A stretch of 64,000 nt of DNA from Candidatus Woesebacteria bacterium GW2011_GWB1_39_10. Lineage in GTDB: Bacteria > Patescibacteriota > Microgenomatia > UBA8517. The DNA is taken from assembly GCA_000993205.1 (NCBI GenBank), contig LBVU01000002.1:117079-181078 (forward strand), read 5' to 3'. The notes below the pieces were generated by a model. It saw nothing but the letters and a program-made list of their open reading frames with translations, did no database searches and had not been told where the DNA came from. The position numbers were made by a program, and so were the translations under genes. Shown piece after piece: positions 3,194 to 63,720 of this stretch (within the stretch, counting starts at the first letter, position 1; each line of letters starts with the position of its first letter).

Positions 3194-4375
3194 TCAGCTT
3201 CCGATTTTGAACTCAACCACATCTCCGTCGTGCATTATATAGTCCCGGCCCTCGCTCCTGACTTTGCCTTCCTCACGACAAACCTTCCACCCGCCTACGC
3301 CCGGCTTCGGCGAGGCAGGCCCTCCAATAAAGTCACTAAAATCACAAACATCAGCTTTAATAAATTTTTTAATAAAATCCGTATGAATTACACCGGCGGC
3401 TTCTTGGGCACTGATCCCAACCGGAATGGTCCAAGCCCTAACTTCCTTCTCCCCTGCCGTTAAAAATGTAATTAGGCCGAGGGTTTTAAAAGCTTTCTGG
3501 ATTAACCTCTCCAATCCCGATTTTTTAATTCCAAGATCCTCCATGTATATTTTTTGGTCATCGTTAGAAAGTTCCGCAAGCTCGCTTTCGGTTTTGGCGC
3601 AAATTGCCACAACTTGATCGGGATTTAACTTGAGCTTTTCGGCAAAAGAAATTTCCAGATCATGCGCGTTTGCTAAATCTTTCTCATCCACATTCATAAC
3701 GACAAGGACGGGCTTGATTGTCAAAAGTCCTAGTTCTTTGGCTATTTTCCTCTCCTCCTCTGATACATCGTTATATAACGATGTATCACTGGATAAAATT
3801 GTTTTTAATCTCTGAACTGCTTGCCAGCGATCTTTTAATTCTTTATCCGGGGTATTGCCTGGGTCTTTTTGTTTTTCTAAAGTTTGAAGATCGGCCAGCG
3901 CAAGTTCAGTATTTAAGACCTCAAAGTCGCTTACGGGATCTTTTACTCCCTGTTTTACAATATCAGGGTCGGTAAATGCGCGAAGAACAAAACAAATCGC
4001 ATTGGTTTCCCTAATATGGCTTAAAAATTTGTTTCCTAATCCCTCACCTTTGCTAGCCCCGGCGATGAGACCAGCTATATCTACGAATTCGACAGTTGCT
4101 GGAACAATGGGGATACTCGATACTCGATACTCGATACTGGGTGGTTTTTTGTCCCCGCTTAGTATCTTAGTATCTCTATATCCTAGTATCTCCGACTCGA
4201 CAACTTTTCTAAGTTGTTCGAGGCGGCCGTCCGGAACCGGTACAATCCCTATGTTTGGTTCAATCGTTGCGAACGGAAAGTTCGCCACGTACGCCTGCTG
4301 CTTTTTAAGCAAAGCGTTAAAAAGTGTGGACTTCCCAACGTTTGATAACCCTACAATTGCCACACTAAGACTCAT
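3194..4375 (-). CDS. ychF: ribosome-binding ATPase YchF (Obg-family GTPase) carrying an about 30-aa in-frame insertion
   Basis: MSLSVAIVGLSNVGKSTLFNAL G1 motif, C-terminal TGS-like region; insertion ESEILGYRDTKILSGDKKPPSIEYRVSSIPI encoded by repeat 4112-4190. Confidence 0.88.
   Translation of the reverse strand: MSLSVAIVGLSNVGKSTLFNALLKKQQAYVANFPFATIEPNIGIVPVPDGRLEQLRKVVESEILGYRDTKILSGDKKPPSIEYRVSSIPIVPATVEFVDIAGLIAGASKGEGLGNKFLSHIRETNAICFVLRAFTDPDIVKQGVKDPVSDFEVLNTELALADLQTLEKQKDPGNTPDKELKDRWQAVQRLKTILSSDTSLYNDVSEEERKIAKELGLLTIKPVLVVMNVDEKDLANAHDLEISFAEKLKLNPDQVVAICAKTESELAELSNDDQKIYMEDLGIKKSGLERLIQKAFKTLGLITFLTAGEKEVRAWTIPVGISAQEAAGVIHTDFIKKFIKADVCDFSDFIGGPASPKPGVGGWKVCREEGKVRSEGRDYIMHDGDVVEFKIGS
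4112..4190. repeat. Palindromic oligonucleotide repeat (GATACTC)x4 ... (AGTATCT)x3 inside ychF coding sequence, in frame
   Basis: gatactcgatactcgatactcgatact at 4112-4138 and inverse agtatcttagtatc..tagtatc at 4161-4190; same heptamer family at 18470-18498 and 57339-57367. Confidence 0.8.
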
Positions 4376-4436: not shown

Positions 4437-4880
4437 TTAGCCACGACCTTCTCGCTTCGGCGGGAAGGGCAAAACAAAGAATTTCGAAACTTCCTCTAAG
4501 ACTCTGAAAAAGTCACCCTCATCCATTTCTGATAATTTATTCCAAATTCGTTTTGAACTAAACACACGGATTTGTGAAATCATAACAGAAACAGTTTTAC
4601 CTTGCACTGATACCGGAACATAATATTTATTATCCTTAAGCTTTGTGCTCATGGGGATTCCCAAAAACAATTCACGATTGAATTTTTTGATAATTAGAAC
4701 GGGTCTAACAAAGTTTTCATTTTTACCATCCTCTTCAAAACCAACATTTACACCAACAGAAACCCACCAAATATCACGTTCTTTAAAAAGAGGTGGTGTT
4801 TTGATTTTGTAATGAGACTGCTTTTTCTTTTCAATCCATCCATCAAAATCTTTTGGGAAATTTACATCCATATAAAGCAA
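4437..4880 (-). CDS. PemK/MazF-family toxin-like protein (likely true start at an internal ATG, MDVNF...)
   Basis: RDIWWVSVGVNVGFEEDGKNENFVRPVLII and FLGIPMSTK match the PemK/Kid pattern GEIWLVSLDPTAGHEQQGTRPVLIV...LPVVVPVTS; track start is TTG. Confidence 0.6.
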   Translation of the reverse strand: MLYMDVNFPKDFDGWIEKKKQSHYKIKTPPLFKERDIWWVSVGVNVGFEEDGKNENFVRPVLIIKKFNRELFLGIPMSTKLKDNKYYVPVSVQGKTVSVMISQIRVFSSKRIWNKLSEMDEGDFFRVLEEVSKFFVLPFPPKREGRG

Positions 4881-12233: not shown

Positions 12234-13490
12234 CTATAAAGCTAGTAGTATTGAAGCAATTATCACCAATATCCCCACTCCGCCCGCAACAACTGTCGGC
12301 CAATCCGTACCCGTAACAGGAATTGGCCTGGGTGTTGAACTGGTTCCCGCTGAGGAGCCACTTGCAGTCCCTGTCGCGGTTGGTGTCGCAGTGGCAGTGG
12401 CGGTTGCTGTGGGAGTAGCCGTTGCTGTGGGAGTAGCTGTCGCGGTTGGTGTCGCAGTGGCAGTGGCGGTTGCTGTGGGAGTAGCCGTTGCTGTGGGAGT
12501 AGAAAGACATGTAATCGAAAAATTATCAAATTTTGCAGTAGTTGCTGGAAGTGGGTTGCCAGTTACCGGCATAGCAGCAAGACTGATAATCAAATCATCA
12601 GTTAGCGTGGTTGTAAAAACAATTAATTCTGTGAAAGTTGACGAGTTGGATAGTTTGTATGAAGTTGTAATTTTACCAGACTTTCTTTCGACCTTAAAGC
12701 TGACACTGTCAGTTCCATTAATTACCACAGATTTGTTTTGGTTGCCTGGAACAAAATTAACAGCCACATTATGCGCTTCTTGTTTAATATTTCTTCCAAC
12801 TGTAACTATTTTTGAACCATCTGGACTCACCAAAATAAGTGTTCCAGTAACCGCTCCTGTCCCCGTCTTAGTAAGAGCAGGCGCATCAAAAGTAATCACA
12901 AAATCTCCTGTTAAATATTTGGTACTGGTTATTTTAGATCCAGTTTGTTGCCCAGAAGTTACATCGAGAACCAACTGACCAGAAGACACTTTTGCATCCC
13001 CGACCTTACTCCATTTAGCAGAATCAATTGTGCTATCAAAACTATCAGAAAAGTTGTCTGAACAAGTCATACTTCCAGTTGGCCCCGGAGTTGGGGTCGC
13101 GGCAGCGCACTCAGTCATATCTTTGGTCCAAGCTCCGTTAAGTGACGGGCAGCAATATTGACTCCCTCCACATGATCCTATCCTACCGACTCGGTTACAA
13201 AGCTGTTCGTCCGGAGATCCATCGGCCTGGGCAGGGGTACAATTTCTTAAATGCGAAGGCGCCCCCGTGACAGGACACTGCTCGGCAGTAGGACAAGTTG
13301 TAGTCTGGGCCTTCTCTTGAATATTCTGTCTTTGACGCACAAGAAGTACTCCAGCAACAACACTAAGGATTAAAAAAACAACAATTAAAAAAGTCACTAT
13401 GATCCCCTTTTTTCCAAAACTCTTCTTCTTTGTTGAGGTTACTATTTCAAACGGAGAGGTTGTTTGCTTGTTAAGATTTTGGTCAGGCAT
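12234..13490 (-). CDS. cell-surface protein: N-terminal signal anchor, Cys-rich module, jelly-roll (LamG/ConA-like) segment, Pro-Thr-Ala repeat linker, C-terminal IPVTG plus hydrophobic anchor
   Basis: N-terminal TM IIVTFLIVVFLILSVVAGVLLV; (PTATAT)n repeats; C-terminus PIPVTGTDWPTVVAGGVGILVIIASILLAL resembles an LPXTG-type sorting signal. Confidence 0.6.
   Translation of the reverse strand: MPDQNLNKQTTSPFEIVTSTKKKSFGKKGIIVTFLIVVFLILSVVAGVLLVRQRQNIQEKAQTTTCPTAEQCPVTGAPSHLRNCTPAQADGSPDEQLCNRVGRIGSCGGSQYCCPSLNGAWTKDMTECAAATPTPGPTGSMTCSDNFSDSFDSTIDSAKWSKVGDAKVSSGQLVLDVTSGQQTGSKITSTKYLTGDFVITFDAPALTKTGTGAVTGTLILVSPDGSKIVTVGRNIKQEAHNVAVNFVPGNQNKSVVINGTDSVSFKVERKSGKITTSYKLSNSSTFTELIVFTTTLTDDLIISLAAMPVTGNPLPATTAKFDNFSITCLSTPTATATPTATATATATPTATATPTATATPTATATATATPTATGTASGSSAGTSSTPRPIPVTGTDWPTVVAGGVGILVIIASILLAL
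12340..12510. repeat. DNA-level tandem repeat (about 66-bp unit x2 plus partials) encoding the PT/AT-rich linker
   Basis: gttgctgtgggagtagccgttgctgtgggagtagctgtcgcggttggtgtcgcagtggcagtggcg repeated. Confidence 0.7.
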
Positions 13491-14933: not shown

Positions 14934-14965
14934 AATTGTAAATTGTAAATTGTAAATTGTAAATT
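14934..14965. repeat. Intergenic tandem octamer (AATTGTAA)x4
   Basis: aattgtaaattgtaaattgtaaattgtaaatt; reverse-complement copy caatttacaatttacaatttacaa at 39589-39612. Confidence 0.8.
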
Positions 14966-18276: not shown

Positions 18277-18882
18277 CTATAGTTCGCGGCGGCCTTCTAA
18301 GGCTTGGGTCAGAGTTGTCTCATCAGCATATTCTAAATCTGCTCCCGTTGGAATCCCCATCCCCAGGCGCGTAATTTTTAATTTTAAATTATTAATTTTT
18401 AATTGCTTGCCGAGGTACATGGCGGTAGCATTCCCTTCCATTGTGGGGTTTGTAGCAATAATTAGTTCAGATACTGGATACTCGATACTAGATACTCGCT
18501 TCAGTAAATCGTCAATATATAGTTCATCCGGGCCTATATTTTCCAATGGATTAATCGCCCCATGAAGAACATGATAAACACCTTTAAAATGAGTTCTTTC
18601 GAACGCAAGAATATCTAGGGGTTGCTCTACTACCATCACTAACGATTTGTCCCGCATCGGGTCTGTGCAAATCGGACAAGGGTCGTCCTCACTAATATTT
18701 TTGCAAATTGAACAAAGTTTTGTGTTTTTCTTCAAATTTAGGATTGAATCGGCAAACTCATCGAGTTGGACTTGAGGAACATGCAAAAGATAATAAGTAA
18801 GGCGCTGAGCGCTTTTTGGCCCGATACCAGGAAGCTTGCTAAAAGATTCAATTAGAGCGGTAATGGGACGAGCTATTTTCAT
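18277..18882 (-). CDS. recR: recombination protein RecR
   Basis: C4 zinc finger CSICKNISEDDPCPIC and Toprim LIIATNPTMEGNATAMYL; dnaX-ybaB-recR context. Confidence 0.92.
   Translation of the reverse strand: MKIARPITALIESFSKLPGIGPKSAQRLTYYLLHVPQVQLDEFADSILNLKKNTKLCSICKNISEDDPCPICTDPMRDKSLVMVVEQPLDILAFERTHFKGVYHVLHGAINPLENIGPDELYIDDLLKRVSSIEYPVSELIIATNPTMEGNATAMYLGKQLKINNLKLKITRLGMGIPTGADLEYADETTLTQALEGRREL
18470..18498. repeat. GATACT(G/C/A) heptamer tandem x4 in frame inside recR
   Basis: gatactggatactcgatactagatactcg; encodes ...SSIEYPVSE... Confidence 0.75.
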
Positions 18883-18905: not shown

Positions 18906-18962
18906 CTTGTCATTCTGGAGTCCCGCCCTGCGGGACGATAGAATCTTATTAGTATAGAATCT
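18906..18962. mobile_element. MITE-like palindromic intergenic element, copy A (inverse orientation, core about 45 bp)
   Basis: cttgtcattctggagtcccgccctgcgggacgatagaatctta is the reverse complement of 41148-41192. Confidence 0.6.
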
Positions 18963-19619: not shown

Positions 19620-21062
19620 TTAATTCCCAAATATCTCTTCTGCAACCTTGATTATATCCTTATCCTTTCCTTCAGTCAAAATTGGTTCAATTTTTGTCTC
19701 TTCAATTATTTTTTTAGCCGGAGGCTCAACCAATGTACAAACGACTCTCGTGGGCGACTGTAAAACTCTGGCAACTATATTCTCTAAAACCTGTCTGTGC
19801 TGTGTATCTTCCAAGCGTTCTTTATGAAATTTGTAATAAACTCCCAAGGTCAGAGTTTTACCATCATAAGCCACTGGGCGAGCAGCCCGAAGTAACGCTT
19901 CGATTGAGGCATTTATTGGTTTTATTGAAGACAAAATAGTATTCCAAATCTCTCCTTCAACCTCCATATTTTCGACAGCCGCCTCAACTGTTTCTACAAC
20001 TTCCTCGACAGAAGTCTTGTCTCCCATGTCCCCACTCTTAGTTATCAGTTCTTCGTTCTTAGTTTCACCTCCACACCATTTTATTACGGCGATCTCGAGT
20101 GGTAATTCTTCGATAGGCGAGTCGGGTACTTGTCGGTTGGCCTCAATCAGGAGTTCTGCCAAAACTATCAGTTCGCGATTTTCTGAAATATCCAAGATAA
20201 TATTTTTGTGTATTTCAATTAGAGCCTGCTTAAGTATTCCTTCGGCACCCGCACCTGCCTCAACTGCGTTCTTAATGTAATTAAGGGCATTATGCAGATT
20301 TTTCTTGTATAGAAAACCGACAAACTCATCTACCCCCTGCGCTTTGCCTTTTTCCAAAAAATTATTACCTTCAACACTAACCTGCTCTAAAAGCTTTACC
20401 GCGTCCCTAAACGATCCGTTGGCGGCGCCGGCGATATCTTCCAAAGTTTTTGGATCAAAATCGAGTTTTTCCCCTTTAATCACACGTGTTAAAGATTGCC
20501 GGATTTCTTCAGAGCTTGCTTTCCTGAACCTGATAAATGTTGTCCTCGACCGGATTGTATCAATAAGTTTTTCCGGATTTGTTGTTGCTAAAATAAAAAC
20601 TACGTGTTCCGGGGGTTCCTCAATGGTTTTGAGAAGTGCATTACTGGCCTCAGTTGTTAACATGTGAGCCTCATCAATAATATATACTTTTTTATTCGCT
20701 TTTACCGGGGAGAGTTTGACGACGTCTCTTAGTGTTCTTACATCATCAATTCCACGGTGAGAAGCGGCATCCATTTCAATTACATCCAAATTATTACCTT
20801 TTGTTACGGAAACACATTGTTCACACTTATCACAAGGTTCATAGCTTTTCACTTTTAGCTTTTCACTTTTAGCTATCTCCTCACAGTTTATTATCTTTGC
20901 CATTATTCTCGCCGCGGAAGTTTTGCCTGTCCCTTTTGGCCCGGCGAATAAGAAAGCATGAGGAATTTTGCCCGAACTTACGATCTTTTTTAATGACTCA
21001 CGAACCTCAGGCAAGTCAAGTTCATCTAAATTATTTGAACGGTATTTTAGATAGAGAGTCAT
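19620..21062 (-). CDS. dnaX: DNA polymerase III subunit gamma/tau
   Basis: AAA+ Walker A GPKGTGKTSAARI, zinc module CEEIA..CDKCEQC; contains in-frame KSEKLKVKS insertion. Confidence 0.92.
   Translation of the reverse strand: MTLYLKYRSNNLDELDLPEVRESLKKIVSSGKIPHAFLFAGPKGTGKTSAARIMAKIINCEEIAKSEKLKVKSYEPCDKCEQCVSVTKGNNLDVIEMDAASHRGIDDVRTLRDVVKLSPVKANKKVYIIDEAHMLTTEASNALLKTIEEPPEHVVFILATTNPEKLIDTIRSRTTFIRFRKASSEEIRQSLTRVIKGEKLDFDPKTLEDIAGAANGSFRDAVKLLEQVSVEGNNFLEKGKAQGVDEFVGFLYKKNLHNALNYIKNAVEAGAGAEGILKQALIEIHKNIILDISENRELIVLAELLIEANRQVPDSPIEELPLEIAVIKWCGGETKNEELITKSGDMGDKTSVEEVVETVEAAVENMEVEGEIWNTILSSIKPINASIEALLRAARPVAYDGKTLTLGVYYKFHKERLEDTQHRQVLENIVARVLQSPTRVVCTLVEPPAKKIIEETKIEPILTEGKDKDIIKVAEEIFGN
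20843..20873. repeat. Tandem repeat (CTTTTCACTTTTAG)x2 inside dnaX, reverse complement of the AAAGTGAAAAG family
   Basis: agcttttcacttttagcttttcacttttagc; encodes AKSEKLKVKS in dnaX. Confidence 0.75.
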
Positions 21063-21172
21063 AAAACTAATTAAAAACTAATAACTTAGATCTAAAAATC
21101 ATAACTTAAATCTTAAAACTTTTGTTTTTTGTCTTTAGATAGGGTTATTAGTTATTAACTTTTAGATATTAA

Positions 21173-21562
21173 TTAATCATCTTCGTGGTGTATACCAAGA
21201 AGATGATTTGCTCCGTGTTCAGCCAGTTCGTAAACCCTTTCGTCGATTAAAATATTTTCTTCTTTTGCTTCCTTAAGCGCTTCGGGATAACAAATAATTA
21301 CCTCCCCAAGATGTATAGTTGCATCCGGGGGGTATACGAACCCTTTTACTTCAGTTGGAGTAAAGGAAAGAACATTGTGAAGTTTCCGATCTTTAAGATA
21401 TTTTTTGCCAATCTCCGACATTTTGGCCTCTCCCACAATGGCTACCGAAATTTCAGCGTCAGAAACTATACCATTTTTAGCCAAAAAATCGGCTAGTTTT
21501 TTCTTAATAACCGTTGCCTTAACGGGATAATTTGACTGTTTCGTAACGAAGACTCGAATCAT
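21173..21562 (-). CDS. ybeY: rRNA maturation endoribonuclease YbeY
   Basis: HGANHLLGIHHEDD metal-binding H..H.....H motif. Confidence 0.8.
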   Translation of the reverse strand: MIRVFVTKQSNYPVKATVIKKKLADFLAKNGIVSDAEISVAIVGEAKMSEIGKKYLKDRKLHNVLSFTPTEVKGFVYPPDATIHLGEVIICYPEALKEAKEENILIDERVYELAEHGANHLLGIHHEDD

Positions 21563-22396: not shown

Positions 22397-22503
22397 AGCC
22401 GAACCAGTATATCCATTTTCACGGAGTACAACAAGAGATCAAACTATCCCGATTACTTCAATACTATATAGTATTGAAGTATTTGAGCACAAATCTGAAT
22501 TAG

Positions 22504-27537: not shown

Positions 27538-27629
27538 CTTGGTAATTAATAACTGAGAATTAATATCTAATAACTCGAATTAAAAACTTAAAGCAATCTC
27601 GGTTTTTAGATTTAAGATATGGTTATTAG

Positions 27630-28337
27630 TTATTGGTTATTAGTTTTTAATTTGGACTTACCCTCTAAAATTGCCTCCTTCACCAAACCAAGTACATATT
27701 CCAGCGCTTTGCTTGCATCATCATTCATAGGAATTGGGTAATCAATTGCATCCGGATCGGAGTTGCTATCGACTATACCAACGACGGTCACATGCCCCGC
27801 GTTTGCTTCCCTTACCGCCGATGCTTCTCTTTTTGTGTCAATAACAAAGAGCACGTCCGGAACTTTTTCCAGAGTTTCGACTCCCCCAAAAAATCTTTCA
27901 AGTCTGGTTATTTCGCGGTCAATTAAAAGCCTCTCTTTTTTTGTAAATTTAGCGTAACCACCCGAGGCCATATTTTCCCTCATCTCTTCCATTTTTTTAA
28001 GTGACTTTTTGATTTGACCAAAATTCGAAACTGTTCCACCCAACCATCTTTCGTTAACATATGGCACCCCGATTTCTTCCGCAACTTCCTTTACCTTTTC
28101 CTTGATTTGTTTTTTTGTTCCCAAAAGAAGTATTGTTTTGCCTTCTTTGGCAGATTTTGTTAGAAATTCCAAAGCTTCTTCGATAAGGGGTTTGGTTTTG
28201 GTTAAATCGAAAATATGAACTCCGTTTTCCGAGCCATAGATATACTCCTCCATTTTGGGGTTCCAACGTTTGGTTTGATGCCCAAAATGGGCACCTGCAT
28301 CCAATAAATCTTCGAGTGAAACTTTAAGTTTATTCAT
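27630..28337 (-). CDS. rpsB: 30S ribosomal protein S2 (start at MNKLKV; the track ORF is extended upstream through a repeat element)
   Basis: LLDAGAHFGHQTKRWNPKM conserved S2 N-terminus. Confidence 0.92.
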   Translation of the reverse strand: MNKLKVSLEDLLDAGAHFGHQTKRWNPKMEEYIYGSENGVHIFDLTKTKPLIEEALEFLTKSAKEGKTILLLGTKKQIKEKVKEVAEEIGVPYVNERWLGGTVSNFGQIKKSLKKMEEMRENMASGGYAKFTKKERLLIDREITRLERFFGGVETLEKVPDVLFVIDTKREASAVREANAGHVTVVGIVDSNSDPDAIDYPIPMNDDASKALEYVLGLVKEAILEGKSKLKTNNQ

Positions 28338-29010: not shown

Positions 29011-29051
29011 ATTTAGCTTCGAATACTACAATACTATATAGTATTGTAGTG

Positions 29052-31289: not shown

Positions 31290-31499
31290 TTATTTTTTAA
31301 CTATTCCAAGTTTTGTAAGTTTTTCCATTAACTCTTCTCTTTCTCTTTTATTAGTAAGGCCGACAGCCTTTGAGGCCTGATTTACCTGATCTTCAGTAAA
31401 AACCAGTCCCGGTATAACTTCCCCAAGCCATTTTTCAGCACCGGGATTAACGGTTCGTTTTGTTGGTTCGGGTTCCCGATTTTGAAATTCAGCGCTCAT
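31290..31499 (-). CDS. small hypothetical protein (69 aa)
   Basis: ORF only. Confidence 0.4.
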   Translation of the reverse strand: MSAEFQNREPEPTKRTVNPGAEKWLGEVIPGLVFTEDQVNQASKAVGLTNKREREELMEKLTKLGIVKK

Positions 31500-31600: not shown

Positions 31601-32176
31601 ATGAAAGAGCTTCTGTGTATAACAGGACTTACTGGTTCCGGTAAAAGTGTCGCTTCAGACTTTTTTGTAGACAAAGGTTACCAATATGTTAGGTTTGGTC
31701 AAATAGTTTTGGATGAAATCAAAAGAAGAAACTTGGAGCCAATTGAAGCAAATGAGCGGCCCATCCGTGAAGAGTTCAGACAAAAATACGGAATGGCCGC
31801 AATGGCAATATTGAATCTTCCAAGGTTTAAAAAACTATTAGAAATTGGGGATGTTTTGGGTGATGGGCTTTATAGTTTTGAAGAATACAAAGTCTTAAAA
31901 AAAGAATTCGGAAAACAATTTATTACTGTCGCAGTTTATGCCCCGCCTGAGTTGAGATACGAAAGGCTGACGAAACGGAAATTAGTAAGCTCAGATACGG
32001 CGCTTAGAGATCGTCCCGCAACCAAAGAAGCCGCCGAGTCCAGAGATTACGCAGAACTTGAAAATTTAAACAAAGGCGCGACTATCGCCATGGCCGACTA
32101 CACCATTTTGAATACAAAAGATTTAGATTTTTTTAAAAAACAATTGGAAGAAATTTTTAACGAAATTCAATCCTAA
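31601..32176 (+). CDS. P-loop nucleotide/nucleoside kinase-like protein (dephospho-CoA kinase-like fold)
   Basis: ITGLTGSGKSVASDF Walker A at N-terminus. Confidence 0.55.
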   Translation: MKELLCITGLTGSGKSVASDFFVDKGYQYVRFGQIVLDEIKRRNLEPIEANERPIREEFRQKYGMAAMAILNLPRFKKLLEIGDVLGDGLYSFEEYKVLKKEFGKQFITVAVYAPPELRYERLTKRKLVSSDTALRDRPATKEAAESRDYAELENLNKGATIAMADYTILNTKDLDFFKKQLEEIFNEIQS

Positions 32177-32185
32177 ATATGGTGA

Positions 32186-32213
32186 TGTTCTACTGTTCTA
32201 GAACAATAGAACA
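32186..32213. promoter_or_regulatory. 28-bp near-perfect palindrome TGTTCTACTGTTCTAGAACAATAGAACA (CTAG core), putative operator of the TrpR-like regulator
   Basis: Identical 28-mer at 63008-63035 and related 20-mer at 63537-63556 flanking the TrpR/YerC-like gene. Confidence 0.55.
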
Positions 32214-32299
32214 GACAAGCCAAGTGAAACACAAAATTTCTAAAGACATGAGTGATACATCTATATATAACGATATATCATAGAGTTGCCTCCATATCT

Positions 32300-34339
32300 T
32301 TATATTTCTTCCTTTTTCGGACTCCTCCAAGAGGCATATTTACAATCCGGATAGCGGGAACAGCCAAAAAACCTTCTACCCTTTCCCGTCTTTTTTACAA
32401 TCACTTCACCCTTTTTACACTCCGGGCAAATTACTCCCACTTTTTCCAAATATTTTTCGGTGTGTTTACATTCAGGGAAAAGCGAACAGGAAATGAACTT
32501 TCCAAATCTTCCGGTCCTTACTACCAACTCACCTGTTCTGGTTTTGTCGCCATCTGTCCTAGCTTGATCGCAGTCGGGGCAAGGTCGGCCCAGTTTTTCC
32601 GTTTCAATTTTTACCCTTTCGCTATTTTTCTCAACATCTTTTAACTTCTTTGCAAATGGTTCGTAAAATTCTTTAATTGGGGACTCCCACTTTATTTTGC
32701 CATTTGCTACATCGTCCAAATCATTCTCCATTTTCGCAGTAAATTGATAGTCAAAAGTTTCCGGAAAATTTCCGATCAAAAAATCGTTAACAGCGATACC
32801 TATGGATGTGGGGGTAAATTGCTTGCTTTGGTTTTTTTCAATATAGTTTCTAACCTGAACGGTTGAAATTGTGGGGGCATACGTTGAAGGTCTTCCAATC
32901 CCCAACTTTTCCAAGGTTTTGATTAATGACGCCTCGTTATACCTTGCCGGAGGTTGCGTAAATTTCTGATCTCCCCAAGTTTTAATTAGATCAAGTTTTT
33001 CATCCTTTTCAACATCGGGTAAAACATTCACCTCGGGAGAGTCAAAGACCACTCCCGAGGTGTCTTTCATTTGTTTAACCGGAATCACTTTACGCCAACC
33101 GTCGAAATTCATTATTTGACCGCTGGATCTAAGCGTATAGATGTTAGCATTTAGCGTACAGGTAGCTAAAATTTCAAGAACAGTCTCGTCAAAAATTGAG
33201 GCACTCATCTGACATGCAACAAATCTCGCCCAGATTAATTCATATAGTTTTTGTTCTTCTTCGAAGAATTTGTCATTTGTTATTTGCTTGTCCCCAGAGG
33301 GGGATAATTTGTTATTTACAGACGTCGGCCTGATGGCTTCATGCGCTTCTTGAGCTACTTTAGAGGTGGTCTTAAAAAATCTGGGAGAGGCCGGCAAATA
33401 TTTATCGCCATATTCTTTTTGAATAAATATCCTGGCAGAATCCACCGCGGTTTTGGCTAAGTTCAACGAATCGGTTCTGTGGTATGTAATATAACCCTCT
33501 TCATATAACTTCTGAGCGACTGACATTGTTTTTTTGGATGACCATCCAAAAACTCTCGACCCCGCTTGAGATAACGTTGATGTTGTAAAAGGAGGGTAAG
33601 GACTTTTTGTAACCTGACGTTTTTTTACGTCCGCAACCTTGTATTCCGATTTTTCCAGTTCAGCAGTGATCAGTTCAGCAGTTTTCATATCTTTAGCCTC
33701 ATTTTTTACCAACTGAACAGTGAACGCTGGCGAACTGTTAAACTGTTTAACTGTTGCAAATATTTCCCAATACTCCTCTGCTTTAAACTTTCCAATCTCC
33801 CGTTCTTTTTCGACAACCAAACGAACCACAACCGATTGGACCCGACCGGCAGACAAACCAACTCTCACCTTTTTCCAAAGAAGTGGAGAAAGCTTATAAC
33901 CCACAAGCCGATCGAGAACACGTCGAGCTGTTTGAGCATCAACAAGATTGGTATCAATATCGTGTGGATTTTTAAGAGCTTCATCAACAGCACCTTTAGT
34001 AATTTCATGAAAAGAAACTCGCTTTATGCTATATGCTTTATGGGGTACGGTCAGGATTTCACTCACATGGGATGCGATTGCTTCACCTTCGCGGTCAGGA
34101 TCGGATGCAATAAAGATTTGCTTTGCGCTTTTGGCTTTATGTTGTATGGCTTTGATTGTATCTTTTCTTTTTTCTACGTCCACAAATTCAGGTGCAAAAT
34201 CATGTTCAATGTCTACCCCAAGTGTGCTTTTGGGCAAGTCCTTAATGTGACCCATGGTCGCCTCCACGTCATATTCGCCCCCGAGAAATTTGGAGAGTGT
34301 ACGAGCTTTTGTCGGACTTTCTACGATAATTAATTGCAT
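32300..34339 (-). CDS. topA: DNA topoisomerase I with C-terminal zinc ribbons
   Basis: MQLIIVESPTKARTLSKFLG Toprim N-terminus, active-site Tyr region, C4 zinc ribbons at C-terminus. Confidence 0.93.
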   Translation of the reverse strand: MQLIIVESPTKARTLSKFLGGEYDVEATMGHIKDLPKSTLGVDIEHDFAPEFVDVEKRKDTIKAIQHKAKSAKQIFIASDPDREGEAIASHVSEILTVPHKAYSIKRVSFHEITKGAVDEALKNPHDIDTNLVDAQTARRVLDRLVGYKLSPLLWKKVRVGLSAGRVQSVVVRLVVEKEREIGKFKAEEYWEIFATVKQFNSSPAFTVQLVKNEAKDMKTAELITAELEKSEYKVADVKKRQVTKSPYPPFTTSTLSQAGSRVFGWSSKKTMSVAQKLYEEGYITYHRTDSLNLAKTAVDSARIFIQKEYGDKYLPASPRFFKTTSKVAQEAHEAIRPTSVNNKLSPSGDKQITNDKFFEEEQKLYELIWARFVACQMSASIFDETVLEILATCTLNANIYTLRSSGQIMNFDGWRKVIPVKQMKDTSGVVFDSPEVNVLPDVEKDEKLDLIKTWGDQKFTQPPARYNEASLIKTLEKLGIGRPSTYAPTISTVQVRNYIEKNQSKQFTPTSIGIAVNDFLIGNFPETFDYQFTAKMENDLDDVANGKIKWESPIKEFYEPFAKKLKDVEKNSERVKIETEKLGRPCPDCDQARTDGDKTRTGELVVRTGRFGKFISCSLFPECKHTEKYLEKVGVICPECKKGEVIVKKTGKGRRFFGCSRYPDCKYASWRSPKKEEI

Positions 34340-37118: not shown

Positions 37119-37251
37119 CGAATTATTCTAACATTAAAAAGAAGTATGTCTAACTCACTATATTGATATGTACCAATATAGTGTCGGCAACAAATCTGAC
37201 TTAGAATTGTACCATTGTTACATAACAATGGTACAAAACGTCAATTTATTA

Positions 37252-38406: not shown

Positions 38407-40524
38407 ATGATTAAATTACAAAAAATTATTTTCATTCTTTTTGCAATTCTTTTTTTCTTCGTTCCTTTAGTTTTGTGGCCGTATACATCTGAAGTTTTTG
38501 AATTTAACAAAATAGTCTTGGTATACATATTTACGGTTTTGATAGTTGCCGCATGGTTTGCAAGGACTGTCCTTGCACAAAAGATAATATTTCGTCGCAC
38601 AATATTAGATATACCACTTTTGGCATTTTTAGCTTCGCAATTTAGCTCAACCATTCTTTCGATAGACCCATCAACTTCTTGGTTGGGATATTATTCCAGG
38701 TTTAACGGCGGACTGCTTTCTACTATTTCCTATTCCCTACTTTATTGGGCCTTCGTTTCCAACTTAGACCGAAAACACGCCCTATATACTATATATTATA
38801 TACTTGCCTCCGCCTCGCTTGCTTCTGTTTACGGCGTATTAGAGCACTTCGGCATCGATAAAGCCCTCTGGGTTCAGGATGTTGCTTCCCGTGTATTTTC
38901 TACTCTTGGACAGCCGAATTGGCTGGCGGCGTTCCTCGTCGCGCTCCTGCCTATTACATGGGCTTTGGCGCTCACAAGATTCCAGATTCCACAACGAAGT
39001 TGGTTACGTAATTCCAGATTCTTGATACATTTCTTGCTTTCGATCCTATTTTTTTGGACATTAATATTTACCAAATCAAGATCGGGGCTTTTAGGATTTG
39101 GTGTAGCATTTCCGATTTTTTGGATGGGATATTTTTGGCTAAACCGAAAAAGTTTCTTGAAATGTCTTTCCCCTTTTGCCATTATTAGTTCTTCACTATT
39201 AATTATTAGTTTAATTTCCGGTACTCAATATACTCCCAACCTATATAACTTCTTAATTAAAACCAATAAAGGCTTGCCGGCCGAAACCCTGGTGAAGGCT
39301 GGGCCGGCTCTTGAAGTCGGTGGAACCGAGTCCGGTACTATCCGGAAAATCGTATGGCGCGGGGCTATCGAAATATGGAAACAGTACCCGATTTTTGGAA
39401 CAGGCGTCGAAACTTTTGCTTTTTCTTACTACCAATTTAGGCCCGTCGAACACAATTTAGTCTCCGAATGGGATTTTATTTACAACAAAGCACACAATGA
39501 GTACCTTAATCTCGCAGCCAATACAGGTAGTTTTGGATTAATTGCCTATTTAGTTCTTGTTAGTTTCTCGATATATCAAATGATTAAGAATTTACAATTT
39601 ACAATTTACAATTTACAAACAAATTCTAAGTTTGAAAATTTCAAAAATGAAAATTTATTGAAAATTGGTAATTGGAAATTGGTAATTCTCGGCCTCTTGG
39701 CCGGTTATACAAGTCTTCTCGTAACCAATTTTTTTGGTTTTTCGGTCGTTCCAACCCAACTCCAGTTATTTTTATTTCCGGCGATAGCGATTATTTTAGC
39801 TAAAAGTGAAGAGGTAAAAGTGAAAAGTGAAACGATAAATACCAATCAAAAAGTTCTAATTCTTATAACGCTCTTAGTTCTTAGTTATTCGCTTTTCGTT
39901 ATCGGCAAATATTGGTATTCCGATACTCTTTATGCCAAAGGTAAGGGATATAACAGCATTCAACGACCGGATGCCGCCATCAACTATTTAGTCCGGGCTA
40001 CTAATATGAAACCCAACCAACCACTATTTCACAGTGAGTTGGCAAACTCATACGCGGCCATGGCGCTTGCTCTTTATAACCAGAAAGACATAAATGGATC
40101 TAAAAAGTATGTCGATTTGGCAATTAGCGAATCAGACAAATCTGTTACCCTTTCTGCCTCTATGCTGAATTTAAAAAGATCGCGTTTTGGAGTATTCGTA
40201 GTGCTTTCAACTATAAATCCGAACCATCTTCTTATTGCCCAAGAAACTTTAATTGATGCTATAACATTTGCTCCAACCGATGCAAAACTTTATTACAATT
40301 TAGGTCTGACCTACGCAAGAACCGGCCAACCGGACCGCGCAATTGAAATTCTAATTAAAACAATCGGTTTAAAAGCCAATTACAGAGACGCAAGGCTTGC
40401 ATATGCATATCTCTTAATTGACAAGAACAAGAACACTGAGGCAAAAGAACAACTCGGATATATTCTTAAATCTATCGACCCCAACGATTCACTTGCCAAA
40501 CAGGCGCTTGAGAGCATCAAATAA
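38407..40524 (+). CDS. O-antigen ligase (Wzy_C) family membrane protein with C-terminal TPR repeats
   Basis: RKIVWRGAIEIWKQYPIFGTGVETF matches the R..W....P.GxGxG.F ligase motif; about 10 TM helices; TPR-like C-terminus; contains three in-frame oligo repeats. Confidence 0.75.
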   Translation: MIKLQKIIFILFAILFFFVPLVLWPYTSEVFEFNKIVLVYIFTVLIVAAWFARTVLAQKIIFRRTILDIPLLAFLASQFSSTILSIDPSTSWLGYYSRFNGGLLSTISYSLLYWAFVSNLDRKHALYTIYYILASASLASVYGVLEHFGIDKALWVQDVASRVFSTLGQPNWLAAFLVALLPITWALALTRFQIPQRSWLRNSRFLIHFLLSILFFWTLIFTKSRSGLLGFGVAFPIFWMGYFWLNRKSFLKCLSPFAIISSSLLIISLISGTQYTPNLYNFLIKTNKGLPAETLVKAGPALEVGGTESGTIRKIVWRGAIEIWKQYPIFGTGVETFAFSYYQFRPVEHNLVSEWDFIYNKAHNEYLNLAANTGSFGLIAYLVLVSFSIYQMIKNLQFTIYNLQTNSKFENFKNENLLKIGNWKLVILGLLAGYTSLLVTNFFGFSVVPTQLQLFLFPAIAIILAKSEEVKVKSETINTNQKVLILITLLVLSYSLFVIGKYWYSDTLYAKGKGYNSIQRPDAAINYLVRATNMKPNQPLFHSELANSYAAMALALYNQKDINGSKKYVDLAISESDKSVTLSASMLNLKRSRFGVFVVLSTINPNHLLIAQETLIDAITFAPTDAKLYYNLGLTYARTGQPDRAIEILIKTIGLKANYRDARLAYAYLLIDKNKNTEAKEQLGYILKSIDPNDSLAKQALESIK
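39589..39687. repeat. In-frame tandem repeats (CAATTTACAA)x3 and (GAAATTGGTAATTG)x2 inside the O-antigen ligase-like gene
   Basis: aatttacaatttacaatttacaaa 39589-39612 and gaaaattggtaattggaaattggtaattc 39654-39687. Confidence 0.75.
39798..39832. repeat. AAAGTGAAAAG-family tandem repeat in frame (encodes EEVKVKSET)
   Basis: agctaaaagtgaagaggtaaaagtgaaaagtgaaa. Confidence 0.75.
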
Positions 40525-40567: not shown

Positions 40568-41101
40568 ATGATCAGAAAGATAATTCAATCGGGTAACCCG
40601 ATTTTAAGACGAAAATCCAAAAACATTGCCAAGGTGGACAAAAAGGTTCAGGAGATAATCAGGGATCTGAAGGATACATTAAAGACCCAAAAAGAACCGG
40701 AAGGTGTGGGCCTGGCAGCTCCCCAAATCGGCAAGAATCTGAATATCTTCATTGCTAGCTACAAAAATTTTCAACGAGTGGTAATAAACCCTGAAATTTT
40801 GAAAATTTCAGGAGCTAAAAGTGAAAAGCTAAAAGTGAAAAGTAAGAAGGAAATACTCGAAGGCTGCTTGTCACTTCCTTATTACTACGGACCTCTAAAA
40901 CGAGCGGATAAAATCACCGTTAAATATCTAAACGAAAAAGGAGAAGAAATTACGGAAGATTTAGAAGGTTTTGATGCTCAAATAATTCTTCACGAAATTG
41001 ATCACCTTGAGGGAAAATTGTTCATCGACAGACTTTTTGAAGAAAAGAAACCCTTGTATAAAGTTGATGGAGATGAATGGGAAGAGGTGGAGCTTTCGTA
41101 G
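40568..41101 (+). CDS. def: peptide deformylase
   Basis: EGCLSLP and HEIDHLEG metal-binding motifs; def-fmt pair; carries in-frame KSEKLKVKSKK insertion. Confidence 0.92.
   Translation: MIRKIIQSGNPILRRKSKNIAKVDKKVQEIIRDLKDTLKTQKEPEGVGLAAPQIGKNLNIFIASYKNFQRVVINPEILKISGAKSEKLKVKSKKEILEGCLSLPYYYGPLKRADKITVKYLNEKGEEITEDLEGFDAQIILHEIDHLEGKLFIDRLFEEKKPLYKVDGDEWEEVELS
40813..40842. repeat. AAAGTGAAAAG-family tandem repeat in frame inside def
   Basis: agctaaaagtgaaaagctaaaagtgaaaag. Confidence 0.8.
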
Positions 41102-41107
41102 GAAAGC

Positions 41108-41192
41108 GACATCCTGAGGCGGCAGCCGAAGGATCCTGTCAATATTAAATAAGATTCTATCGTCCCGCGTTGCGGGACTCCAGAATGACAAG
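41108..41192. mobile_element. MITE-like palindromic intergenic element, copy C (85 bp, between def and fmt)
   Basis: gacatcctgagg...gaaggatcct...aataagattctatcg-tcccgcgttgcggga-ctccagaatgaca; imperfect TIRs GTCATCCTGAG / GTCATTCTGGAG. Confidence 0.65.
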
Positions 41193-56990: not shown

Positions 56991-57021
56991 AATAACTAAG
57001 AGCTAAAAAGTAAGAACTAAT

Positions 57022-57051
57022 AGCTTTTCACTTTTCGCTCTTCACTTTTAG
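57022..57051. repeat. AAAGTGAAAAG-family repeat (reverse complement) encoding the C-terminal KLKVKSEK of RNase HII and forming an imperfect hairpin with 57000-57021
   Basis: agcttttcacttttcgctcttcacttttag opposite agctaaaaagtaagaac. Confidence 0.65.
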
Positions 57052-57720
57052 TTTGTTGAGCCAAGTGGCGACGAAGGCTTTCCTGTGCAATTTAGTCGCT
57101 CCATATTTTTTGATGGCATTTTGGTGTTCTTTTGTCCCATACCCTTTGTTTTTACCCCATTTGTAAACTCTAAATTTTGGATTTTTGGAGATTTTTACCA
57201 TTAGTTTATCCCGATAGACTTTGGCGACAATTGAGGCTGCTGCGATTGAAATCGATTTCGTATCCCCTTTAATAATGGCCTTTTGGTTTTTTCTTCTTAG
57301 ACTCCTTACGTAAGGTATGAAGAAGGCGTCAATGAGTAGATACTCGATACTGGATACTTTGATACTCACACTTTTGATCGCTTTACGGAAAGCTATTTCT
57401 GAGGCTTTTTTTATCCCAAACCGATTTATTTGTGCCACACTTGCCTGTCCGATTCCAATCGCAAGTGCATTTTGCCGTATCCATTTATCTGCAACTTTCC
57501 TCTGTCTTGGAGTAAGTTGTTTTGAGTCGTTGATAATTATTTTGCGATTACCTTTCAAGACCGTGTCTTTAAAGGTGGTTATAGTATTTCTGTCAAAGAC
57601 AACACATCCTGCCACAATTGCGCCGGCAAAACAGCCTCTACCTACCTCATCCATACCGGCAACAACCTTAAAACCTTTATTCCACAGCTTCTTTTCAAAG
57701 GAGAAATCCGGAAGTGTCAT
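57028..57720 (-). CDS. rnhB: ribonuclease HII
   Basis: VAGMDEVGRGCFAGAIVAGCVVF catalytic N-terminus; contains in-frame SSIEYLLID insertion and KVKSEK tail. Confidence 0.88.
   Translation of the reverse strand: MTLPDFSFEKKLWNKGFKVVAGMDEVGRGCFAGAIVAGCVVFDRNTITTFKDTVLKGNRKIIINDSKQLTPRQRKVADKWIRQNALAIGIGQASVAQINRFGIKKASEIAFRKAIKSVSIKVSSIEYLLIDAFFIPYVRSLRRKNQKAIIKGDTKSISIAAASIVAKVYRDKLMVKISKNPKFRVYKWGKNKGYGTKEHQNAIKKYGATKLHRKAFVATWLNKLKVKSEK
57339..57367. repeat. GATACT(C/G/T) heptamer tandem x4 in frame inside rnhB
   Basis: gatactcgatactggatactttgatactc. Confidence 0.75.
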
Positions 57721-59500: not shown

Positions 59501-59563
59501 GTTTTACGAAGGATCCTATTAATATAACAAAAGATTCTATCGCTAACGCTCCAGAATGACATC
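59491..59563. mobile_element. MITE-like palindromic intergenic element, copy D (overlaps last three codons of rplK, ends 7 bp before rplA)
   Basis: gtcatcctgag-ttttac-gaaggatcct-attaatataacaaaagattctatcg-ctaacg-ctccagaatgacatc; colinear with copy C. Confidence 0.65.
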
Positions 59564-62935: not shown

Positions 62936-62962
62936 ATCCCGCTTAAAATGCGGGATTTTTTG
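62936..62962 (+). terminator. Rho-independent terminator after rplL (ATCCCGC-ttaaaat-GCGGGAT then T6)
   Basis: Read directly. Confidence 0.7.
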
Positions 62963-63007: not shown

Positions 63008-63035
63008 TGTTCTACTGTTCTAGAACAATAGAACA
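63008..63035. promoter_or_regulatory. 28-bp palindrome TGTTCTACTGTTCTAGAACAATAGAACA directly abutting the stop codon of the TrpR-like gene
   Basis: Identical to 32186-32213. Confidence 0.55.
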
Positions 63036-63536
63036 CTATTTGCGATATAATTCACTATTCATTTCAGCTATTTCTTTATCTATTACCTCTTTTTCCGACA
63101 TTTTCTCAATTAGCTCTTTGGGAGTTTTATCTTGTTTCTCTGCTACAGCATATTGCCCAGTGGCTAACAGTAATTCCGGTAAATGAAATTCAATCGGACC
63201 ATGTGGAATTTTGGTTGGTTTGCCCCATTTTAATGGCAACTTCGCGATCGCCTTCTTAAATCCATTTCCACCTTTTTCCAACCAAATGTTAACTTTATTC
63301 ACAGTTCCCAAACTTGAATGAGTTTCCCGAACGACTTCACGCTGATGTTTGCCAGAGAGCAATAGTTTGGCTATACGAAGCCTTATTGAAAGAATTTTTA
63401 TTTCGTTGGCGGTAAGCAGATCCTCAAGGAAATCCGCTATTTCAGAAGCATTTCTTAAGTCCTTAAATGAGTTTACCAAATCAAACATCAAACTTACCTT
63501 TTCCTCGTTTCCTAATTTTTCCGCTTTCTGTTTCAT
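63036..63536 (-). CDS. TrpR/YerC-YecD-family DNA-binding protein with C-terminal extension
   Basis: FLEDLLTANEIKILSIRLRIAKLLLSGKHQREVVRETHSSLGTVNKVNIWLEKGG matches the Trp-repressor-like family pattern. Confidence 0.7.
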   Translation of the reverse strand: MKQKAEKLGNEEKVSLMFDLVNSFKDLRNASEIADFLEDLLTANEIKILSIRLRIAKLLLSGKHQREVVRETHSSLGTVNKVNIWLEKGGNGFKKAIAKLPLKWGKPTKIPHGPIEFHLPELLLATGQYAVAEKQDKTPKELIEKMSEKEVIDKEIAEMNSELYRK

Positions 63537-63556
63537 TGTTCTAGAACATTAGAACA
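63537..63556. promoter_or_regulatory. Palindrome TGTTCTAGAACA plus TTAGAACA directly abutting the start codon of the TrpR-like gene, putative auto-operator
   Basis: Shares the 12-bp CTAG-core palindrome with 32186-32213 and 63008-63035. Confidence 0.55.
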
Positions 63557-63720
63557 TGTACGGTGAAGGCTTGTCAAGAATGGCAAGACAAACAATAGCT
63601 GAAAGAATTTACTCGATATAAATTCGTGAAATGTTTGGGTGTGAAATAAGGTCGTATTTTCACGAACTGCTGGATAAAGGATTTGTTCGAAAGTGATAGT
63701 TAATACCCTATTTTGGGCAT

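Follow-up and report, generated by a model that had tools for sequence, protein, structure and literature searches.

Palindromes with the layout of TrpR/HisR-family operators at both ends of a regulator gene in a Woesebacteria bacterium and in its homologues

TrpR/HisR-family repressors and the regulator of the window

YerC of Bacillus subtilis is HisR, a histidine repressor of the TrpR family with fewer than 100 amino acids (PMC9413887). The operators of the TrpR/HisR family are 20-bp palindromes, with the consensus cacTTTA-N6-TAAAgtg for HisR in Firmicutes and TGTAcTnGTnnACnAgTACA for TrpR, in which the half-sites are spaced by 8 bp (PMC9413887). HisR is frequently autoregulated, trpR is autoregulated as well, the HisR motifs are lineage-specific, and the specificities of the two regulators stand in contrast, with Arg69 and TGTA in TrpR and a Tyr and CACT in HisR (PMC9413887). 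Because the HisR survey covered only the region from -350 to +50 around translational starts (PMC9413887), a 3' site elsewhere could have escaped notice. Here, we analyzed a gene of this family, together with the palindromes that abut its start and stop codons, in a 64-kb stretch of DNA (hereafter, the window) from Candidatus Woesebacteria bacterium GW2011_GWB1_39_10.

To our knowledge, no 3' operator has been described at E. coli trpR, and almost nothing is known about transcription control in candidate phyla radiation (CPR) bacteria, or Patescibacteria, which cannot be grown alone. Our literature search found no paper on this regulator clade or on a 3' operator; one paper goes no further than noting that, in some Microgenomates, a tRNA-Trp/TrpRS-A operon begins with a 'trp repressor gene' (PMC5370408).

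The regulator gene lies on the minus strand at 63036–63536 and encodes a protein of 166 amino acids, which is assigned to the TrpR/HisR(YerC) family by Pfam, TIGRFAM and fold. Specifically, PF01371 (Trp_repressor) matches residues 20–99 with E = 1.1e-13 and 51.5 bits against a gathering cutoff of 27, and TIGR02531 (YerC/YecD) is passed by a small margin (47 bits, cutoff 42.2), in agreement with the TrpR/YerC-like identity that the original prediction had given to the gene. TIGR01321, the equivalog model of E. coli-type TrpR, is failed with 24 bits against a cutoff of 67.25. Among proteins of solved structure, 3G1C, 3FRW and 3KOR come nearest (E = 1e-15 to 1e-13), and E. coli TrpR is a distant match (E ~4e-3). 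In the AlphaFold2 (AF2) model, with a predicted local distance difference test score (pLDDT) of 78, an all-helical TrpR fold with a helix-turn-helix spans approximately residues 10–98 (helices 10–25, 30–40, 43–60, 65–72, 76–88 and 91–98) and is followed by a linker (99–114) and a long C-terminal helix (115–165). Foldseek aligns this model with 3G1C, 3FRW, 3KOR, 1TRO and 1TRR at template modelling (TM) scores of 0.70–0.80, with 0.75–0.80 to TrpR and HisR chains over approximately 95 residues, and comparison of the model with the solved relatives reveals no counterpart of the long C-terminal helix in any of them. The extension of approximately 70 residues formed by the linker and the long helix is kept in 42 of 42 aligned homologues, including the motif KLP.KW..P.K.P.GPIEF.LP. 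Neither the Pfam search nor the AF2 model reveals a catalytic domain in the protein. Its helix-2 motif F-L-E-D-L-L-T-A-N-E-I resembles F-F-E-D-V-C-T-I-N-E-I of HisR, without this being evidence for histidine as the co-repressor. Additionally, the protein is identical to a 'TrpR-like protein' recorded at NCBI for Microgenomates group bacterium GW2011_GWC1_39_7b, a groundwater CPR bacterium. By sequence, fold and operator layout, the regulator is a member of the TrpR/HisR family, and it is nearer to HisR/YerC than to TrpR.

Palindromes at both ends of the regulator gene and its homologues

As the original prediction had claimed, the regulator gene is bracketed by palindromes; the coordinates of these two sites and of a third, remote one were all confirmed, and the abutment on the stop and start codons follows from the open reading frame (ORF) at 63036–63536(-). 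The 3' site, a 28-mer (TGTTCTACTGTTCTAGAACAATAGAACA) at 63008–63035, lies in the convergent spacer toward rplL and is composed of two perfect 20-bp sites that overlap with an 8-bp offset. Its last base (63035) adjoins the regulator stop codon, which reads CTA on the plus strand (63036–63038). The 5' site is a 20-mer (TGTTCTAGAACATTAGAACA) at 63537–63556, a single perfect copy of the 20-bp site TGTTCTA-N6-TAGAACA, and its first base (63537) adjoins the regulator ATG (63536–63534, minus strand). A second, degenerate 20-bp site with 2 mismatches (63529–63548) overlaps the 5' site at an 8-bp offset and lies over the start codon. In full, the 5' site is thus a degenerate 28-mer (63529–63556, TGTTTCATTGTTCTAGAACATTAGAACA) with 86% identity to the other 28-mers, and its fourth, outermost half-site is the start codon region ATGAAACA. 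The remote site (32186–32213) is a 28-mer identical to the 3' site and in the same orientation, located between the stops of a kinase-like gene and topA, 10 nt past the stop of the kinase-like ORF at 31601–32176(+) and 87 nt past that of topA at 32300–34339(-). The 28-mer is a palindrome at 13 of 14 pairs, with C8/A21 as its sole mismatch.

The 12-bp core TGTTCTAGAACA has three matches in the window against 0.17 expected, and none of 100 shuffles reaches three. In the 64 kb, 11 of the 12 TGTTCTA heptamers fall within the three sites, and TGTTCTA-N6-TAGAACA occurs five times without mismatch. Palindromes of 28 bp with at least 12 of 14 pairs number nine in the window, compared with none in 17 and one in 3 of 20 shuffles. 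Weaker matches in the window are at chance level, whether they depart from the core at 2 positions or from the 20-mer at 3. The sites do not have the character of repetitive extragenic palindromes (REP) or miniature inverted-repeat transposable elements (MITE), as only 3 copies occur in the 74 kb searched for paralogues and extra sites (the window plus 10 kb), and the exact 20-mer pattern occurs only 2–3 times in each of two related genomes; such a low copy number fits operators and not dispersed repeats.

In line with the motifs published for the family (PMC9413887), the 20-mer of the window consists of two 7-bp half-sites that are 6 bp apart. Each 28-mer contains such 20-mers, both perfect, at positions 1–20 and 9–28. 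By layout, these are therefore complete operators, single at the 5' end and double elsewhere, and not halves of a palindrome. In many homologue loci, CACTTTAGCACTTT/AAAGTGCTAAAGTG reproduces the HisR consensus twice with the same 8-bp offset. Dimers of E. coli TrpR occupy tandem sites offset by 8 bp (1TRR). Boxes of the LexA, parS and KstR types were considered as other candidates and were rejected, as their spacing or orientation does not fit.

The regulator is widespread in CPR bacteria: one search gave 90 protein clusters, and a different one gave 140 metagenome loci. When metagenome contigs were scanned, 80 loci with homologues of 35–80% identity were obtained (fetched related loci are given L-numbers), which represent 70 non-redundant proteins, 66 of them evaluable per end. 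A 28-bp palindrome of at least 10/14 pairs beside the gene was counted as part of a bracket. By this measure, 62 of the 66 evaluable loci have a 5' palindrome, whose end lies a median of 6 nt ahead of the start codon, and 58 of 66 have a 3' palindrome, located 0–21 bp past the stop in 39 of 51; 51 homologue loci have both. For background, 19 of 162 windows of 142 bp reach at least 10/14. The sequence of the sites depends on the lineage, with cores such as TGTTCTAGAACA, TGTACTAGTACA and TGCTCTAGAGCA and full sites such as CACTTTAGCACTTT/AAAGTGCTAAAGTG, TACTACATCACTAC/GTAGTGATGTAGTA and TGTAACAGTGTAAC/GTTACACTGTTACA, and the palindromes at either end of one gene share 23.5 of 28 positions versus 13.9 of 28 between loci. 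Approximately 305 kb of homologue flanks contain only about 12 other palindromes of at least 12/14, about 7 of which are extra copies of the local type. Since most homologues carry the bracket and the sites agree within each locus, the bracket is a conserved property of the family, and the site co-evolves with the protein.

The site type also follows one residue of the protein. Residue 66, which lies in the QRE motif and corresponds to Arg69 of TrpR, is Arg in 37 of the 43 loci with half-sites starting with TG (Fisher p = 1.3e-13), whereas it is never Arg in the 26 loci with half-sites starting with CA, TA or similar, in which Phe, Tyr, His, Glu or Lys occur nearby. The pairing of Arg66 with TG half-sites mirrors the published contrast between TrpR (Arg69, TGTA) and HisR (Tyr, CACT). 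Clustering at 60% identity gives 15 clusters, 8 of which combine Arg with G at half-site position 2 and 6 of which have neither, while 1 has Arg without G and none has G without Arg. Across the homologue palindromes, mismatches concentrate in the spacers that separate the half-sites (arm positions 1, 8 and 14), and T and A at arm positions 4 and 7 are almost never broken.

Two further observations concern related loci. In L021 (3001–3402, JGI contig Ga0209211_10025284), 541 of 541 aligned bases are identical to the window, save for a 99-bp in-frame deletion that removes regulator residues 76–108 (the recognition helix and the linker) and leaves both palindromes intact; this allele is either a natural loss of function in the population or an assembly artefact. 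In a distant subfamily, a third 28-bp palindrome of the same type lies 20–62 nt past the rpoD stop (L091 3547–3574, L092 3165–3192, L093 3614–3641), and the gene beyond it differs among the three loci.

Of 33 loci with a convergent neighbour, 30 have the 3' site, as do 20 of 24 with a co-directional neighbour. Being equally common with either orientation, it belongs to the regulator gene and not to the next promoter. An operator of the next gene was rejected because the site is independent of the neighbour and because some loci leave no room for a promoter; in L026, L046 and L049, the 3' site lies only 16–26 nt from the stop of the convergent rplL. A small RNA encoded in the spacer that leads from the 3' site to rplL was likewise rejected, as this spacer is unconserved and as short as 16 nt. 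The neighbouring genes across the homologue loci are rplL (convergent, 13 loci), a RimK-like ATP-grasp gene (6), DnaJ (5), TyrRS (4) and S10 (4). In the neighbourhoods of the three sites in the window, no his or transporter genes adjoin any site, and no trp genes are near.

These loci also bear on an alternative raised in the original prediction, in which insertion of the gene split a pre-existing palindrome into the two halves that bracket it today, or, more broadly, on the idea that the gene and its flanking palindromes form a mobile cassette, with the palindromes as recombination sites. The exact abutment of the repeats on the start and stop codons would suit such an origin, as would the remote 28-mer, which is flipped relative to conserved flanks when L019 is compared with the window, and the lone 28-mer in L015, which has no adjoining regulator gene. 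However, each flank holds a whole 12-bp palindromic core and no half, and the bracket is kept around homologues of 35–80% identity whose site sequences are different and lineage-specific. Synteny is partly kept as well, with rplL as the convergent neighbour in 13 fetched loci and DnaJ, TyrRS or S10 in others, which argues against a freely mobile cassette. Moreover, only 2–3 copies occur per genome, the gene list contains no adjacent recombinase or transposase, and the regulator protein is devoid of a catalytic domain. The mobile cassette was thus rejected on its partly syntenic neighbours and the absence of a recombinase, the insertion reading is not supported in view of the intact cores and the conserved bracket, and we regard an origin of either kind as hardly credible.

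Upstream of the regulator, a putative core promoter on the minus strand (63548–63577) combines the -35 hexamer TTGACA (63577–63572), an 18-nt spacer and the -10-like hexamer TCTAAT (63553–63548), which sits within the 5' site. The ATG lies 11 nt after the -10, so that the regulator mRNA would be nearly leaderless. TTGACA is placed such that the -10 falls within the palindrome in L042, L056, L059, L064, L074, L076 and L095, and in several homologues it lies 17–18 nt ahead of a -10-like hexamer within the palindrome or immediately before it. The palindrome starts at approximately +1 in L043, L055 and L068, and it abuts the -35 in L089 and L091. Of the three sites, only the 5' site is thus at a plausible promoter. 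The two 28-mers both lie in 3'-3' convergent spacers with no promoter there to control, and the 3' site is therefore no conventional promoter operator.

The location of both 28-mers, and of several other 28-bp palindromes in the window, directly past stop codons could instead point to RNA hairpins with a part in termination, stabilisation or processing of the transcripts at gene ends, in place of DNA sites bound by a protein. Each palindrome can fold a 12-bp stem with a 4-nt loop, and in the sense of the regulator mRNA, the one mismatched pair of the 3' site reads G-U. Nevertheless, no T-run follows the sites of the window, and the operator palindromes were not called in an intrinsic-terminator scan. 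A canonical terminator is found separately, 50 nt further on, as a G+C-rich hairpin with T runs on both strands (62936–62956); this is the intrinsic terminator of rplL, distinct from the palindrome, and it probably also terminates the regulator transcript. Among the homologues, the ratio of G-U to A-C mismatches on the sense strand is 32:39 in the 5' sites and 39:33 in the 3' sites, and the absence of a bias toward G-U argues against an RNA hairpin. Many of the mismatches are transversions, and they cluster at the spacers and not along the stem. Furthermore, the two sites of one locus share their sequence beyond mere pairing, the 5' sites overlap or abut promoter-like hexamers, and the half-sites fit the known DNA operators of the TrpR/HisR family. 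With no strand bias of mismatches and a separate terminator at 62936–62956, an RNA hairpin was rejected as the main function, and we consider it very unlikely.

Proposed autoregulation and candidate binders

The operator layout of the family and the co-variation of homologue sites with the protein lend good comparative support to an operator role, and we consider it highly probable that the palindromes are operators of the adjacent TrpR/HisR-family repressor. The autoregulation by its own TrpR-like product that had been proposed for the gene is likewise favoured by the layout, the palindromes of the homologues, their co-variation with the protein and the overlap of the 5' site with the putative promoter, all of them read from sequence.

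We propose that the binding unit would be the 20-bp TGTTCTA-N6-TAGAACA, occupied by one dimer, presumably together with a co-repressor. Since the 28-mer consists of two overlapping sites, a tandem pair of dimers should occupy it, in the manner of E. coli TrpR at its operators. The 5' site covers the likely -10/start region and the start codon, and the protein bound there would repress its own synthesis. The 3' 28-mer would be the second operator of one autoregulatory unit, and two roles seem the likeliest for it. First, the 3' and 5' sites may be bridged by contacts between the extra C-terminal helices, closing a DNA loop of approximately 520 bp around the gene; the centre-to-centre distance of the two sites is 521 bp here and 422–734 bp in the homologues. 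This role, which is drawn by analogy with the C-terminal tetramerisation helix of LacI, is put forward tentatively, with the chances somewhat against it. Second, the 3' site may serve as a roadblock, at which the bound protein would prevent RNA polymerase from entering the gene or continuing beyond it. In the window, such a roadblock would stop polymerase arriving from the convergent, highly expressed rplL, and at other genes it may gate read-through. We hold the roadblock to be a possibility of about the same modest standing as the loop; the two are not exclusive, and both may apply. The remote copy at 32186 would be a further operator of the same protein, one that precedes a dCMP-deaminase-like gene in a relative.

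The sites recur directly past stop codons, namely those of the regulator, the kinase-like gene, the CCA-adding enzyme, archease and rpoD. More speculatively, a TrpR/HisR-like clade of CPR bacteria could have gained a C-terminal oligomerisation helix and fixed self-bracketing double operators that both close a loop and act as roadblocks against read-through in compact genomes. The copies past the other stops (kinase-like gene, rpoD, CCA-adding enzyme and archease) would then be ligand-controlled terminators or insulators and not promoter operators, and the lineage-specific pairs of protein and site would amount to a recognition code for the TrpR fold. We consider this wider scenario doubtful as a whole.

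Several points weigh against operators of the regulator's own protein, or against parts of the model above. The support for an operator role is all comparative. The association between Arg66 and G at half-site position 2 is phylogenetically clumped, with only 3 clusters at 55% identity; the Fisher p-value thus overstates independence, and the association may reflect few independent events. A consensus promoter scanner, which demands A at -10 position 2, for that reason made no call at TTGACA-18-TCTAAT. The helical phasing of the 5'-3' distance gave no signal at periods of 9.5–12 bp, a result that speaks neither for nor against a loop longer than 500 bp. Within the fetched loci of two related genomes that bear the 28-mer (L013–L016 and L019), no TrpR-like gene is present, which may reflect incomplete assemblies. 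Palindromes of the same layout also occur in the window without a nearby TrpR-like gene, and not all such palindromes need belong to proteins of this family. Finally, in unrelated GC-rich phyla, genes for GntR-family regulators carry a 20-mer identical to that of the window at their start codons, and the sequence by itself therefore does not name the binder.

Specifically, TGTTCTA[AG]TGTTCTAGAACA abuts the start codon or lies no more than 13 nt from it at L011 5368–5387, L012 6117–6136 and L017 2581–2600. The genes concerned encode GntR-family regulators of approximately 315 amino acids in three metagenome-assembled genomes (MAGs) of 64–70% G+C labelled as delta proteobacterium, Planctomycetota and Solibacteraceae. 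Together with the 28-bp palindromes of the window that have no cognate TrpR-like gene nearby, these sites would suit operators of a different regulator encoded elsewhere, for example one of the GntR family, with the TrpR-like gene as merely one target. Against such a regulator, the palindrome type shifts across lineages together with the helix-turn-helix residues of the TrpR-like protein, the layout is of the TrpR/HisR type, and some lineages reproduce the HisR consensus exactly. Additionally, the palindromes are concentrated at TrpR-like genes and rare in the surrounding 305 kb, and no GntR gene is noted in the gene list around the locus. We therefore regard a different regulator as improbable and retain the adjacent TrpR-like protein as the preferred binder.

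Apart from the sites described so far, the window holds five other near-perfect 28-bp palindromes (12–14 of 14 pairs, approximately 0.15 expected per window), at 3761–3788, 22454–22481, 29024–29051, 37156–37183 and 37208–37235. They have the same layout of four half-sites at 8-bp offsets and differ in sequence, for example TGATACATCGTTAT/ATAACGATGTATCA, TACTACAATACTAT/ATAGTATTGTAGTG and TGTACCATTGTTAC/ATAACAATGGTACA, and they resemble the palindromes beside TrpR-like homologues from other lineages, as at L055 and L076. The palindrome at 3761–3788 is inside a ychF-like ORF (3194–4375, minus strand), and the other four lie just past stops (proS-like, formiminotransferase-like and mreB). A TrpR-like paralogue as the owner of these palindromes was rejected, as no second TrpR-like gene turned up among the six-frame ORFs searched with a hidden Markov model (HMM), be it in the window, the 74 kb or L001. 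In Prescottella agglutinans (L018 4380–4415), four CTAGs at 8-bp spacing are located just upstream of trpB-trpA.

With regard to the remote site, L019, which is labelled Gammaproteobacteria and has 41% G+C, is syntenic with the window at 28.4–34 kb with 77–90% identity and carries a 28-mer at the corresponding place (4737–4764), 3 nt past the stop of the kinase-like gene. The adjoining non-coding segment of the window (32214–32283) is conserved, with 1 difference in approximately 70 nt versus L019, and the surrounding genes are 78–90% identical. Beyond this segment, L019 has a dCMP-deaminase-like gene and a phosphoribosyltransferase (PRTase)-like gene, both of which are absent from the window, where the homology ends near 32283. 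Of the remote target that had been predicted, the identical site at 32186–32213 thus holds up and a target gene does not, since none is present here and the dCMP-deaminase-like gene follows the site only in L019. Relative to the conserved flank, the L019 28-mer is the exact reverse complement of the window copy (T8/G21 versus C8/A21), a flip for which two transitions would suffice, as would gene conversion by another copy. The single asymmetric pair is present in each of the seven 28-mer copies seen in three genomes, none of which is a perfect palindrome. In the related genomes, the 20-mer is located past the stops of the CCA-adding enzyme and archease genes, shortly ahead of the next ORFs, or upstream of a haloacid dehalogenase (HAD)-hydrolase gene.

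A second palindrome (TGATACATCTATATATAACGATATATCA / TGATAYATCTATATATAACGATRTATCA) is found at 32255–32282 of the window, at approximately 4805–4832 in L019 and at approximately 7775–7802 in L015. It lies 20–41 nt from the TGTTCTA 28-mer at these three loci in two genomes and is related to the intragenic palindrome at 3761–3788, and the pair suggests that the regulatory region is composite, with a different binder for each palindrome. In the same region, a 69-aa ORF of the window (31290–31499) shares the first approximately 30 residues of a 318-aa ORF of L019 (2964–3920) that looks ThyX-like, and the stretch 32214–32299 of the window lacks the dCMP-deaminase-like and PRTase-like genes of L019 (4880–6293). 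ORFs named by eye as thymidine-kinase-like and thymidylate-kinase-like remain in the window. This looks like a recent loss of pyrimidine genes at the window locus.

The window has other repeats as well. Short tandem repeats of 7 or 14 nt recur, for instance TTGTAAA in four copies, GATACTC repeats, AGCTAAAAGTGAAAAG and TTAGTTA-like runs, at 14934–14965 and 39583–39618; 4112–4138, 18470–18496 and 57332–57358; 20845–20875, 39797–39842, 40813–40857 and 57016–57057; and 2307–2357, 21069–21174 and 27602–27652. These repeats could be additional regulatory sites. Two copies of a 45-nt inverted repeat (18906–18950 and 41148–41192), 93% complementary and 22 kb apart, contain a G+C-rich hairpin (GTCCCGC...GCGGGAC), and a 36-nt direct repeat (41127–41162 and 59507–59542) is related to it. 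An array at 12348–12515 comprises seven overlapping register copies of a 66-nt stretch, with a register of 12–18 nt and 62–100% identity to the reference copy; it is GTNGCNGTNGG-rich and probably a repetitive coding segment.

Comparison with known repressor systems

If the 3' operator is a loop anchor or a roadblock, it would show how genes are insulated in compact genomes with short spacers; if it is only a second autoregulatory site, the system would be an ordinary autoregulated repressor with a tidy architecture. The binding sites of the regulator can be read from sequence and its specificity tracks identifiable residues, which opens the way to site prediction and regulon reconstruction across CPR bacteria.

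HisR/YerC, represented by 3G1C, 3FRW and 3KOR, is the closest system by both sequence and fold, and the window protein passes its TIGRFAM model. The two share 20-bp palindromes with 7-bp half-sites 6 bp apart, and HisR likewise has lineage-specific motifs and frequent autoregulation (PMC9413887). Many of the CPR homologues even use the HisR consensus CACTTTA...TAAAGTG itself. Unlike HisR, which has fewer than 100–110 amino acids and a short single domain, the window protein has 166 amino acids with the extension of approximately 70 residues, its sites are doubled into 28-mers and stand at both ends of the regulator gene, and no his or histidine-transporter genes adjoin them. The 3' flank of hisR was compared at three loci of one genus, Lachnospira. 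A HisR-type site is upstream in two of the three, and past the stop there is an ordinary terminator (L101, L102) or no palindromic operator (L103).

E. coli TrpR (1TRO, 1TRR) has the same fold (TM ~0.75–0.8), and the equivalent of its Arg69 is found in the QRE motif of the window protein. Like TGTACTAG, the half-site of the window belongs to the TGT.CTA type and has a CTAG core. In contrast to these likenesses, the sequence similarity between the two proteins is weak, and TrpR does not have the C-terminal helix.

In the cases of lambda CI (OL/OR), LacI (O1-O2/O3), GalR (OE/OI) and DeoR, a gene or operon lies between operator clusters that are joined by DNA looping. LacI has a C-terminal tetramerisation helix, and in lambdoid immunity regions the specificity of the repressor and its operators co-vary as a cassette. 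The layout at the present locus would be analogous to that of these looping repressors, with cognate operators on both sides of a transcription unit and an extra oligomerisation element. The families are unrelated, however, and here the loop is a proposal only, with the distal operator in a convergent 3' spacer, where it serves no second promoter.

A tightly bound repressor can stop elongating RNA polymerase, as do LacI at O2, PurR at purB, and CodY and CcpA at intragenic sites. The 28-mers described here stand right past stops, namely those of the regulator and the kinase-like gene in the window, of the CCA-adding enzyme and archease in relatives, and of rpoD in the other subfamily. Whereas the known roadblock sites are incidental and single, the candidate ones at the regulator and its homologues are a conserved feature of the gene end. 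An operator past the stop codon is no described feature of TrpR or HisR, and the conserved 3' operator, together with the C-terminal extension that ends in a long helix, is what is new here.

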